From the NCBI RefSeq assembly GCF_003334305.1, contig NZ_QOWS01000054.1: a DNA stretch of 2,565 nt; one strand, given 5' to 3'. The DNA is from Escherichia coli. GTDB taxonomy: Bacteria; Pseudomonadota; Gammaproteobacteria; Enterobacterales; Enterobacteriaceae. Below, one piece after another: positions 1-2,565 of this stretch (positions are counted from its first letter, which is position 1; every line of letters starts with the position of its first letter). A program made the translations under genes and the position numbers. Below the pieces are notes generated by a model. It saw nothing but the letters and a program-made list of their open reading frames with translations, was not told the origin of the DNA and did not search any database.

Positions 1-657
1 GAGGAGAACCCGCATCACCTGCACCAGCCGTACCGGCTGCCGGGGCAGCAGTATGATAAGGAGTCGGGGCTGTACTATAACCGTCACCGGTACTACGATC
101 CGTTGCAGGGGCGGTATATCACCCCGGACCCGATTGGGTTGAGAGGTGGATGGAATATGTATCAGTATCCGTTGAATCCCATACAAGTGATAGACCCAAT
201 GGGGTTAGATGCGATTGAGAATATGACATCAGGTGGACTAATTTATGCCGTATCTGGTGTACCTGGATTGATTGCTGCAAACAGCATTACTAACAGTGCT
301 TACCAGTTCGGTTATGATATGGATGCTATTGTTGGCGGAGCTCATAATGGGGCCGCCGATGCAATGAGACATTGTTACTTGATGTGTCGAATGACTAAGA
401 CATTTGGATCAACAATAGCTGACGTGATAGGTAAAAATCATGAGGCGGCAGGGGATAGACAAGGTCAGCCAGCTAAAGAAAGAATCATGGATCTTAAAAA
501 TAACACTGTCGGTATTGCTTGTGGCGATTTTTCTGCCAAATGTAGCGATGCATGTATTGAAAAATATAACACTGGGCAACTCTTCGGGTTAGATGGTATA
601 AAAGCAGATAATCCAATAAAAGCAAAGCAAGGGAGTTCAGATGCTTCAAATTATTAG
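1..657 (+). CDS. rhsE: Rhs-family polymorphic toxin, 3' portion (5' end lies upstream of the window): terminus of the conserved RHS core followed by a variable C-terminal toxin domain
   Basis: Frame 1 is open from nt 1 with no stop until TAG at 655-657, so the gene starts upstream; the ORF-track start at 103 is only an internal TTG. Translation from nt 1 reads [69 protein letters not shown], the hallmark end of the RHS repeat-associated core (YD repeat, then the DPxGL demarcation). The first 200 nt are GC-rich (about 60% by eye) and composition drops immediately after DPMGL, as expected at an Rhs core/CT junction. The symbol is a tentative recollection of K-12 synteny (rhsE-ydcD-yncI-ydcC), not verified. 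Confidence 0.85.
193..207 (+). other. DPxGL motif (DPMGL) marking the boundary between the conserved Rhs core and the variable C-terminal toxin domain
   Basis: Codons 65-69 of the frame-1 translation encode D-P-M-G-L, preceded by the conserved PxxxxDPxGL context ([13 protein letters not shown]). In Rhs/YD-repeat proteins this motif delimits the core from the polymorphic CT and is associated with autoproteolytic release of the CT (established knowledge of the family). An upstream DPIGL at codons 43-47 belongs to the conserved core. Confidence 0.7.
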
Positions 658-1123
658 AGGCAAACTTGTCATTTTTTTAATTACCCTTTGTTTATTTGTT
701 GTTTACCTTGGGTTTGATAACAATTCAAATTCTGACATCGTATTTTATGGACATAAAACACCAAAGAGCGTTGAGATATATCTTTCTGAAAAAAATATTA
801 TTTATAAAATAATTAATGACCAAAAAATTAGTAGAGGGAATGGTCATTTTATAAGTATAATGGTTAATAATTACAGGACGCACTGTGGAGTGGTTGATAT
901 AAATCTTAATTTTTTCAATGATATTCTTTATAGCGTGCGATTAAAAAACATTAGTAAACTGGAGAATATGGAGTTCTGCGCTAAAAAACAACGGGTGTAT
1001 TTTAGTGATAAAAACAAGAAGGCTAGTTATAAAATAATTAATTATGGAGACTATTACGATGTTGATTATTATGATAACAATTTGAAAAATGAAGTTTTTG
1101 ACTGGATTGGTAAATGGTCATAA
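641..1123 (+). CDS. ydcD: Putative Rhs-toxin immunity protein (160 aa, AT-rich, N-terminal hydrophobic segment; uncharacterised)
   Basis: ATG at 641 is preceded by a good RBS (GGGAG at 631-635, 5-nt spacer). The ORF overlaps the toxin stop by 17 nt, the typical arrangement for a toxin/immunity pair. A 160-codon ORF in DNA this AT-rich (well under 30% GC by eye) is unlikely by chance. Residues about 8-25 ([18 protein letters not shown]) form a hydrophobic stretch after a positively charged start. The symbol is a tentative recollection of K-12 synteny; immunity function is inferred from position only. Confidence 0.7.
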
Positions 1124-1202
1124 TGAACAACACCAGAAAGAGAAAAATATAAAATACATACAGAAAGACATGAGAGCAAGGGACGGGGCAGGGCAAGATC
1201 AT

Positions 1203-1230
1203 GAAAATTGTGATGTAAATCACGATTTTC
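1203..1230. promoter_or_regulatory. Near-perfect 12-bp inverted repeat with 4-nt loop (GAAAATTGTGAT-GTAA-ATCACGATTTTC); contains a CRP-like TGTGA-N6-TCAC core; could also act as a weak intergenic hairpin or terminator
   Basis: Seen directly: 1203-1214 pairs with 1219-1230 with a single G·U position. The core TGTGA (1209-1213), 6 nt, TCACG (1220-1224) matches the CRP consensus TGTGA-N6-TCACA at 9 of 10 positions. It lies in the 180-bp gap between the immunity gene and the H-rpt transposase start. The stem is AT-rich, so terminator function would be weak. Either function is speculative. Confidence 0.25.
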
Positions 1231-1259
1231 ATCTTGGCTTTAACGCCTACAGGTGATCA

Positions 1260-2480
1260 AAATTTAACCTTTGGAATAACTAAAAAGATAAAAAAGGACC
1301 CAGGTGAGTATTCAAAGTTTGCTTGATTATATTTCAGTGATCCCTGATATACGACAACAAGGAAAGGTTAAACATAAATTATCTGCTATTTTGTTTCTCA
1401 CCGTATGTGCAGTAATTGCAGGTGCCGATGAGTGGCAGGAAATTGAAGATTTTGGACATGAAAGACTTGAATGGCTAAAGAAATATGGTGATTTTGATAA
1501 TGGCATTCCGGTCGATGACACCATTGCACGCGTTGTGAGTAACATTGACAGTTTGGCCTTTGAAAAGATGTTTATTGAATGGATGCAGGAGTGCCATGAA
1601 ATCACTGATGGTGAAATTATAGCAATAGATGGAAAGACCATAAGAGGCTCCTTTGATAAGGGAAAAAGAAAAGGAGCAATCCATATGGTGAGTGCATTCT
1701 CGAACGAAAATGGTGTTGTACTGGGGCAGGTGAAAACGGAAGCCAAAAGTAATGAGATTACAGCCATTCCAGAGTTGCTTAACCTACTGTATTTAAAGAA
1801 AAATTTGATAACCATTGATGCTATGGGCTGTCAGAAAGATATCGCTTCGAAGATCAAAGATAAAAAAGCAGATTATCTTCTGGCAGTAAAAGGCAATCAG
1901 GGGAAATTACATCATGCATTCGAGGAAAAATTTCCTGTAAATGTGTTTTCTAATTATAAAGGCGATTCGTTTAGTACGCAGGAGATAAGTCATGGAAGAA
2001 AAGAAACACGTTTGCATATTGTCAGTAACGTAACGCCTGAACTTTTGTGATTTTGAATTCGAATGGAAGGGATTAAAAAAGCTTTGTGTAGCATTGTCAT
2101 TCAGGCAGAAGAAAGAAGATAAATCAGCAGAAGGTGTAAGCATCCGATATTATATTTCATCAAAGGATATGGATGCTAAAGAATTTGCACATGCTATCAG
2201 AGCGCACTGGCTGATCGAGCACAGTCTTCATTGGGTGTTAGATGTAAAAATGAATGAAGATGCCAGCCGGATAAGAAGAGGAAACGCAGCCTAAATAATA
2301 TCTGGAATAAAGAAGATGGCACTGAATTTATTAAGAGATTGCAAAGACATTAAGGGTGAAGAGGAAAAGAAAGAAGGCTGCGTTAAACACAGGGAAAGAT
2401 CATCAGAAGTTCACTTTTTGTACTAAATAATTCGCATTTTATGTTTAAAAATTGAGATATTCCTCATTACCTGAAGCTGT
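1260..2480 (+). mobile_element. Remnant H-rpt (ISAs1-family) insertion sequence; boundaries approximate
   Basis: The transposase pseudogene fills most of this span, consistent with the roughly 1.2-1.3 kb size of H-rpt elements. I could not identify convincing terminal inverted repeats by eye, so the ends are estimated from the ORF position and from the upstream homology shared with the second copy (ATAAA(A/T)AAGG before each start codon). Confidence 0.4.
1304..2426 (+). pseudogene. yncI: ISAs1-family (H-repeat / H-rpt) transposase gene, inactivated by a +1 frameshift and an in-frame stop
   Basis: Track ORF 1304-2050 (GTG start, RBS AAGGA at 1294-1298) is collinear with H-rpt transposases (…ISVIPDIRQ…GIPVDDTIARVV…AIDGKTIRGSFDK…AIHMVSAFS…KSNEITAIPELL…IDAMGCQKDIA…ADYLLAVKGNQ…). 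It stops at TGA 2048-2050 just after a TTTT run at 2043-2046. Deleting one T restores [24 protein letters not shown]…, which continues into track ORF 2094-2294 (…[29 protein letters not shown]). That ORF ends at TAA 2292-2294, where homologs have a sense codon (GNAAE…). The same frame continues IISGIKKMALNLLRDC… to TAA 2424-2426, giving about 374 codons, the expected ISAs1 transposase length. The symbol is tentative. Confidence 0.8.
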
Positions 2481-2532
2481 TTTTTATTGCTTATACATGA
2501 TCAAATACTCCTTACATAAATAAGGTGAACAA

Positions 2533-2565
2533 ATGGAACTTAAAAAATTGATGGAACATATTTCT
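2533..2565 (+). CDS. ydcC: 5' end of a second ISAs1-family (H-rpt) transposase gene, continuing beyond the window
   Basis: ATG at 2533 follows an RBS-like AAGGTG (2522-2527). The 11 codons in the window, MELKKLMEHIS, match the characteristic N-terminus of E. coli H-repeat-associated proteins and align with the pseudogene N-terminus (MSIQSLLDYIS). Only 33 nt are visible, so the call rests on the N-terminal match and context. The symbol is tentative. Confidence 0.55.
   Translation, partial: MELKKLMEHIS

Follow-up and report, generated by a model that had tools for sequence, protein, structure and literature searches.

ISAs1 of Aeromonas salmonicida is the founding member of its insertion sequence family; it is only distantly related in sequence to the two copies described here, and we take it to share with them the NF033564 profile and the PF13808 plus PF01609 architecture. 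Transposition is documented for some ISAs1 family members, and by ISfinder convention elements sharing more than 90% of their DNA are isoforms. The original description of the H-rpt, a member found in E. coli, is that of Zhao et al. in the Journal of Bacteriology in 1993. H-rpts are associated with Rhs elements, and no H-rpt transposition has been observed (PMC3032704). In E. coli K-12, an H-rpt stands at the distal Rhs end in all three loci examined, that is, at RhsB (yhhI), at RhsC (the triple array ybfQ/ybfL/ybfD), and at RhsE. The RhsE block of K-12 MG1655 lies between yncH and pptA and reads rhsE′ (a 5′-truncated pseudogene), ydcD, yncO, yncI (b1459, a pseudogene), ydcC (b1460, annotated as an "H repeat-associated putative transposase"), and pptA. 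Annotated as an ISEc26 family transposase, yncI is a pseudogene in MG1655, whereas O157 Sakai has an intact version (PMC11540155). The ISEc26 copy of O157:H7 is complete, with 1,305 bp, a 390-amino-acid ORF, and two inverted repeats that agree at 17/18 bases (it begins CAGGGCAAGATCATGAAA and ends with the complement of CAGGGCAAGAGCATGAAT), and no H-rpt follows it.

In this study, we compared these systems with the window, by which we mean the whole 2,565-nucleotide stretch of E. coli DNA that was analyzed. The window is an E. coli Rhs locus, and at least 80% of it is present in 2,432 of 5,426 complete E. coli genomes (megablast), many at 100% identity. The aspV–yafV island of strains 503025 and 120899 is 100% identical to it and has the gene order (vgrG), rhs, ydcD, a small antisense ORF, an ISAs1 pseudogene, a second ISAs1 pseudogene, yafV, ivy, and fadE. 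Against the K-12 RhsE block, the window shows the same order (rhsE, ydcD, yncO, yncI, and ydcC) at 99.3% DNA identity. The two differ in that K-12 ydcC is intact and begins MELKKLMGHIS (MELKKLMEHIS in the window), whereas in the window's 100% matches the corresponding gene carries in-frame stops and the cassette stands behind a full vgrG-rhs pair. On the evidence of the MELKKLMEHIS start, the window is not K-12 DNA, and its most likely home is the aspV–yafV island. The arrangement is the annotated K-12 yncI–ydcC pair, already known and ordinary, and it has little importance beyond annotation hygiene. From comparative sequence analysis, we hold with high confidence that the window ends in two different ISAs1-family insertion sequences, placed head to tail at the distal end of an Rhs toxin/immunity cassette, which would have arrived separately and have both decayed.

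The Rhs cassette and its two ISAs1-family copies

The cassette opens with the 3′ end of an Rhs core ORF and its variable C-terminal toxin tip (positions 103 to 657, plus strand), which matches the NCBIfam RHS_core and Rhs_assc_core models on residues 1 to 35 and is annotated as "RHS element core protein" in the identical match of the strain 503025/120899 type. The cognate immunity-type gene ydcD (641 to 1123, plus strand) overlaps the rhs stop codon by 17 nt, scores 215.5 bits against the NCBIfam model YdcD_fam (cutoff, 65), and is annotated as ydcD both in the window-identical genome and in K-12. The small antisense ORF yncO runs from 1223 down to 1038 on the minus strand and starts inside a hairpin at 1201 to 1232. 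An Rfam scan of the window returned no match, and a sigma-70 promoter scan of positions 1100 to 2565 found 1 site where 4.4 were expected.

Downstream of this module, two ISAs1/H-rpt transposase genes in tandem had been predicted, and NCBIfam, Pfam, and existing annotation all bear this out. Against the NCBIfam ISAs1 transposase model NF033564, with its curated cutoff of 70 bits, copy 1 scores 293.5 bits (residues 29 to 243 of the ORF at 1304 to 2050) and again 82.3 bits (the fragment at 2094 to 2294, on the C-terminal part of the model). Its raw ORF also matches PF13808 (DDE_Tnp_1_assoc; 2.3e-32, residues 8 to 94) and PF01609 (DDE_Tnp_1; 3e-16, residues 102 to 230), a combination that recurs in the precomputed hits of relatives. 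The ORF of copy 2 is annotated as an ISAs1 family transposase in the window-identical genome and in K-12. By these profiles and annotations, both copies are ISAs1 family insertion sequences, with a DDE transposase, a length of ∼1.2 to 1.5 kb, one ORF, and short terminal inverted repeats. Only the two left repeats lie within the window (at 1189 and 2390), the right repeat of copy 1 being deleted and that of copy 2 lying beyond the window.

Copy 1 occupies positions 1189 to 2389 (plus strand), starts 65 bp downstream of ydcD, and is 98.7% identical over 1,201 bp to the intact O157:H7 ISEc26, which stands at the same position behind ydcD/yncO; a base-by-base comparison counts 18 small differences over the ∼1,205 bp shared. 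This degree of identity to copies that PGAP annotates as ISEc26 family identifies copy 1 as ISEc26, in a defective form that K-12 carries as yncI. It corresponds to ISEc26 positions 1 to ∼1205 of 1,305 bp and lacks the last ∼98 to 100 bp, having lost with them 27 codons, its stop, and the right inverted repeat. Its left terminal inverted repeat, CAGGGCAAGATCATGAAA (1189 to 1206, plus strand), agrees at 17/18 bases with the reverse complement of the right end of the O157:H7 element, and a motif scan for it hits the window only at 1189 and 2390. Just inside this end, a self-BLAST inverted match marks the hairpin already mentioned (1201 to 1232, plus strand), with a 14-bp stem that is perfect in O157:H7; positions 1189 to 1310 fold as RNA at −31.8 kcal/mol (z = −3.8), and the hairpin is flagged as terminator-like.

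The transposase pseudogene of copy 1 (1304 to 2430, plus strand) follows a 115-nt leader that runs from the left end at 1189 to a GTG start. The Shine-Dalgarno-like AAAGGA 6 nt upstream of the GTG (1292 to 1297, plus strand) is conserved in the O157:H7 ISEc26, in a Salmonella relative, and in a hybrid element. From the GTG (MSIQSLLDYISVIPD...), the ORF runs to 2050, and three-frame translation finds other frames resuming at 2094 to 2294 and then at 2316 to 2426. Relative to the intact O157:H7 gene, three lesions are present: one extra base in a T-run at ∼2042 to 2046, which shifts the frame; a G-to-T change at 2292 (GAA to TAA); and a 5-bp deletion after 2353, which shifts the frame again. When these are repaired, the translation matches, at 99% identity, a 390-amino-acid protein named "ISAs1-like element ISEc26 family transposase". 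The apparent tail of the ORF at 2390 to 2430—its last 13 codons and stop—is encoded by the left end of copy 2. Copy 1 is decayed, as the original prediction had it, and is truncated as well; the predicted ORF start at 1304 is correct, although the element itself begins at 1189 and its own DNA ends at 2389. In the window-identical genome, PGAP labels copy 1 "frameshifted; internal stop" and copy 2 "internal stop".

Copy 2 enters the window with the first 176 nt of a 1,291-bp H-rpt of the ydcC type (2390 to 2565, plus strand; ISEc1/ISEc5 family in PGAP), that is, with its left repeat, a 143-nt leader, and 11 codons. This stretch is identical at 168/177 positions to the K-12 H-rptE and at 169/177 to H-rptB (∼95%). 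The 1,291-bp unit is common to K-12 RhsE, RhsB, and RhsC, its RhsE copy being 97.9% identical to that of RhsB and 95% identical to the complete copy of RhsC. It begins CAGGGAAAGATCA and ends TAATCTTGCCCTG, with terminal inverted repeats that agree at 11/13 bases, and its ORF starts 144 nt into the unit and stops 10 nt before the right end. In the window, the left repeat CAGGGAAAGATCA lies at 2390 to 2402 (plus strand) and agrees at 11/13 bases with the reverse-complemented right end (CAGGGCAAGATTA) of K-12 H-rptB, H-rptE, and the O157 copy. The transposase start, an ATG at 2533 preceded by the Shine-Dalgarno-like TAAGGTG at 2520 to 2526, opens the 11 codons MELKKLMEHIS (2533 to 2565, plus strand), and the ORF runs off the window. 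Colinear with the RhsB and RhsE copies from the same left end, copy 2 is on this alignment the 1,291-bp H-rpt. Its homology extends well past the 11 visible codons: in the window-identical genomes (strains 503025 and 120899), as in K-12, the ORF spans 378 codons of an ISAs1 transposase, and the element is 1,290 bp long at the yafV locus of this type. The idea that this second copy might be intact downstream fails there, given the in-frame stops, and holds in K-12; in the genome that the window itself comes from, copy 2 might in principle be whole as well. The RhsB H-rpt and the RhsC array share the left end and leader of copy 2; the RhsC array differs from the window in being built of one H-rpt type (90 to 95% identical mutually), whereas the window pairs two insertion sequence types.

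The junction between the copies and the probable order of events

The intact left repeat of copy 2 directly abuts the internally truncated copy 1, with no spacer between the elements. The alignment of copy 1 to ISEc26 ends at ISEc26 ∼1205 to 1207, equivalent to window positions 2389 to 2391, and the two junction bases CA are ambiguous between the copies. The second start does lie 107 nt past the end of the copy 1 ORF (2533 − 2426 = 107), as had been noted, but this "gap" is copy 2's own leader. For annotation, the point is that the second element accounts both for what looks like the end of the first pseudogene and for the 107 nt read as "intergenic".

The state without copy 2 can be seen in O157:H7, where the complete ISEc26 stands at the same site behind ydcD/yncO with no second element, and where 76 bp separate its right end from the same yafV flank. 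Since this intact ISEc26 exists without copy 2, the arrival of copy 2 appears to have been a separate event. After the right repeat of copy 2, the chromosomal flank follows directly, both in the window-identical locus (yafV) and in K-12 (pptA). A nested insertion, with the rest of ISEc26 lying beyond copy 2, was considered and is rejected on these flanks at the yafV and pptA sites. Comparison of the flanks with O157:H7 indicates that copy 2 replaced the last ∼98 bp of ISEc26 together with ∼70 bp of adjacent DNA. In K-12, yncI shares with copy 1 both the junction and all three lesions, which argues that junction and lesions arose once, before the block reached both loci. Of the 5,426 complete E. 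coli genomes, 2,192 (∼40%) have the copy 1/copy 2 junction and 2,529 the ISEc26 body, while 310 have an intact ISEc26 right end.

We infer the insertion events themselves from the structure of the element ends and from the O157:H7 state, and the following order would account for both. ISEc26 would have been in place first, 65 bp downstream of ydcD, a state that survives intact in O157:H7. The 1,291-bp H-rpt would then have come to rest with its intact left repeat within the 3′-terminal part of the ISEc26 transposase gene, either by inserting there with loss of DNA or by inserting nearby, after which a deletion starting at the H-rpt left end brought the two together. Having lost its right end, ISEc26 would have become immobile and would later have gained its two frameshifts and nonsense codon. 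In the window-type lineage, the H-rpt copy would in turn have gained stop codons and a degraded right repeat, leaving two dead relics. These relics probably have no cellular function and may serve only to mark, as fossils, where the Rhs accessory region ends and to offer repeated DNA for recombination.

Terminal repeats and target-site duplications had been proposed as checks on this history, and the two fared differently: the repeats were found, but no consistent direct repeats flank the six elements compared. A 5-bp CGGGG stands on both sides of the O157:H7 ISEc26 and could be chance. Any target duplication once present where the two copies meet would have gone with the deletion there. Among the complete E. 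coli genomes, we found no ydcD site without ISEc26; 2,444 of the 2,467 with the ydcD end also hold the ISEc26 left end. Nor was an insertion sequence end, as in a composite transposon, found at the left boundary of the K-12 RhsE block.

An intact element end that abuts a truncated neighbor is seen twice in the RhsC array of K-12. This signature suggests that the transposase was once active, but no activity has been reported (PMC3032704).

The distal edge of the Rhs island and its mosaic identity

A 5,059-bp block, extending from inside the Rhs core to copy 2's right repeat, is common to K-12 RhsE and the yafV locus. In a metagenomic E. coli contig, this toxin tip and ydcD stand beside nfrB at 99.8% identity, and there too the end is at an H-rpt right repeat, so that the shared Rhs block stops at this repeat in three contexts (yafV, pptA at RhsE, and nfrB). 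Beside yafV, K-12 itself keeps the last ∼290 bp of this same H-rpt copy with the same junction, annotated as the pseudogene yafF, and has lost everything else of the island. By these alignments, the right repeat of copy 2 marks the distal Rhs edge and offers a precise marker for the distal edge of the Rhs island, in agreement with the view that the pair of transposase genes delimits the Rhs accessory region. The metagenomic contig with the nfrB site also carries a hybrid of the tandem pair, produced by a 1,229-bp deletion.

Identity along the shared block is uneven. When the yafV and RhsE loci are compared, the single-copy cassette (tip, ydcD, and copy 1) shows 5 differences between window positions ∼200 and 2400, whereas the flanks show 6 to 28 differences per 200 bp in the Rhs core and 2 to 17 per 200 bp in copy 2. 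There is a sharp step between the window and K-12, with 0 differences at 1342 to 2427 and 8 in the next 128 nt. This mosaic fits two readings: exchange of the cassette through its two arms, or gene conversion of the multicopy parts from paralogues.

The first reading holds that copy 2 is a long-term resident and that the tip, ydcD, and the truncated ISEc26 moved between Rhs loci by homologous recombination, the Rhs core supplying the homology arm on the left and the H-rpt that on the right. The tandem pair at any one locus would then be a product of such exchange and not of insertion on the spot. It is a serious contender that we nonetheless judge somewhat improbable. The scarcity of differences in the cassette relative to its arms and the identity step after 2427 speak for it, and more genomes have the junction of copy 2 with pptA (2,290) or with yafV (2,642) than have that of copy 1 with copy 2. 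Moreover, K-12 holds an H-rpt right end at yafV without any cassette, and the same cassette occurs at a third site, beside nfrB. However, a single block copy followed by paralogue gene conversion of the Rhs core and H-rpt would give the same mosaic, and cassette exchange complements the explanation of how the junction originated and does not replace it. Generalizing from this locus, we speculate, more tentatively still, that the H-rpt may act as a portable right homology arm and the Rhs core as the left one, through which toxin-immunity cassettes are swapped between Rhs loci with the dead ISEc26 as a passenger. If so, cassette swapping would have left its footprints in the identity step, in the three sites that all stop at an H-rpt right repeat, and in the broader spread of the H-rpt/chromosome junctions. 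The mosaic identity is a modest hint that H-rpt copies help to shuffle Rhs toxin cassettes between loci.

Divergence of the two copies and their leaders

The separate arrival of two elements has also to be weighed against an ancient tandem duplication in situ of a single H-rpt, whose copies would have since diverged to ∼60% protein identity. The copies are adjacent and colinear, in the same orientation and at a constant offset of 1229 nt, as a duplication would leave them. The nucleotide and protein comparisons agree with the claim that the copies are homologous but diverged: their transposases share 59% identity over 373 amino acids, and the complete elements are 60.6% identical in DNA globally and 68.5% identical over ungapped columns. 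They differ in their inverted repeats, in leader length (115 against 143 nt), and in the C-terminal tail. An element from Salmonella is 78% identical in DNA to ISEc26 and only 64% identical to the H-rpt, which indicates that the ISEc26 and H-rpt lineages split before they came to lie side by side, and the other H-rpt copies of K-12 are 95 to 98% identical to the copy 2 unit. Against a duplication there is, furthermore, the complete left repeat of copy 2, which interrupts the coding sequence of copy 1, and there is O157:H7, with a complete ISEc26 that has its own right repeat and no copy 2. Taken together, the divergence, the Salmonella element, and the O157:H7 state exclude a recent duplication in situ and, with very little residual doubt, an ancient one. 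The two copies are, on sequence grounds, different insertion sequence species and not the products of a duplication. Of the two origins offered by the original prediction, independent insertions is the one that agrees with the different insertion sequence types, the O157:H7 state, and the abutting left repeat, and the ancient duplication is the one that falls.

Still less credible is co-option of one or both genes for a host function such as adherence. In its favor, a weak genome-wide association places yncI with the genes most strongly linked to adherence to bovine recto-anal cells prior to multiple-test correction, and one contig holds an intact hybrid ORF. Against it, the association is gone after correction (all P = 1; PMC11540155), copy 1 in the window is truncated and bears two frameshifts and a stop, stop codons interrupt copy 2 in the matching genomes, and the lesions are fixed in more than 2,000 genomes.

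The leaders of the two copies had also been said to share a motif. ATAAAWAAGG does occur exactly twice in the window (1288 to 1297 and 2516 to 2525), 6 to 7 nt before each start, against a chance expectation of ∼0.05 matches, a figure that overstates the significance because the pattern was picked after seeing the data. The first 14 nt of the leaders are identical at 13/14 positions, this being the inverted repeat, and they have little else in common: beyond the left repeat their alignment is weak, with a score of 77.5 against a shuffle mean of 52 and a maximum of 71. When the 32 nt before the start were aligned in nine copies, the Shine-Dalgarno core alone was conserved, reading AAAGGAC in copies of the ISEc26 type and either TAAGGAG or TAAGGTG in those of the H-rpt, and the remainder of the 10-mer differed in the intact K-12 and O157:H7 copies. 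A shared regulatory element in the leaders is rejected, since the other copies keep just this core. What the two copies share upstream of their starts is the predicted ribosome-binding site.

Mosaic identity between the yafV and RhsE loci

We compared the yafV locus of a genome 100% identical to the window (L001, 4621-9679) with the RhsE locus of K-12 (L002, 2903-7963), which sets window positions from about 100 to 2427 against their flanks. The identity between these loci is a mosaic: the single-copy cassette—toxin tip, ydcD and copy 1, the defective ISEc26—is ∼99.8% identical, whereas the Rhs core and H-rpt flanking it are 2 to 14% divergent, and the identity step falls at most about 40 nt from the junction of copy 1 with copy 2, the H-rpt element.

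The small ORF yncO (64 amino acids; window 1038-1223, minus strand), annotated in K-12, starts within a hairpin with a 14-bp stem in the left end of ISEc26 (window 1201-1232) and is read outward over the ISEc26 inverted repeat, overlapping the 3' end of ydcD in antisense. Since it begins inside the element and crosses the repeat, yncO is an IS-junction ORF, possible only once ISEc26 had arrived.

On the H-rpt side, copy 2 carries TAAGGTG with an 11-nt AACAA spacer variant (window 2520-2532); in intact K-12 copies this stretch reads TAAGGAG, with an additional A. Judged by these motifs, the ribosome-binding site of copy 2 is predicted to be weaker than that of the intact copies, which fits with decay of the copy in the window.

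Truncated, hybrid and relic elements

Of the three tandem H-rpt copies at RhsC of K-12 (L004, 8303-10926), one is a left fragment of 380 bp, one is complete and one is missing its first 24 bp; at every junction one intact element end abuts a truncated neighbor, as in the window. The O157:H7 locus has a complete H-rpt of 1,291 bp upstream (L005, 427-1717), which truncates the rhs core gene at the H-rpt right repeat; ydcD carries a frameshift there, whereas the ISEc26 behind it is intact. This complete ISEc26 has CGGGG on both sides (L005, 3996-4000 and 5306-5310), which may represent a 5-bp target duplication; no such flanking duplication was found at any other element examined.

A metagenomic contig from ENA carries a single 1,263-bp hybrid element adjoining nfrB (L006, 888-2150), a third chromosomal site, with ISEc26 on its left, H-rpt on its right and an intact 378-amino-acid ORF (P0008). 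It is preceded by the same toxin tip and ydcD as in the window (99.8% identical) and looks like the tandem pair collapsed through recombination in the conserved KSNEITAIPELLN-coding stretch. The yafF pseudogene of K-12 (L010, 6099-6390), which adjoins yafV, is what remains of copy 2 there, its final ∼290 bp, with the junction to yafV unchanged; K-12 has thus lost the aspV-yafV T6SS/Rhs island up to a point inside H-rpt.

The ISEc26 lineage in other genomes

A complete ISEc26-like element of 1,303 bp in Salmonella enterica (L007, 3885-5187; 78% DNA identity, 387-amino-acid ORF) adjoins a SymE-toxin-family gene. Its position ∼2 kb from yafV/fadE homologues suggests that the lineage is tied to this neighborhood by an old or recurrent association. 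In strains 2015C-4498 and 8479, the match to the ISEc26 right-end query is restricted to its last ∼135 bp, where no feature is annotated; this stretch may be a solo right-end remnant of ISEc26, in which case it would mark a further state of the locus.
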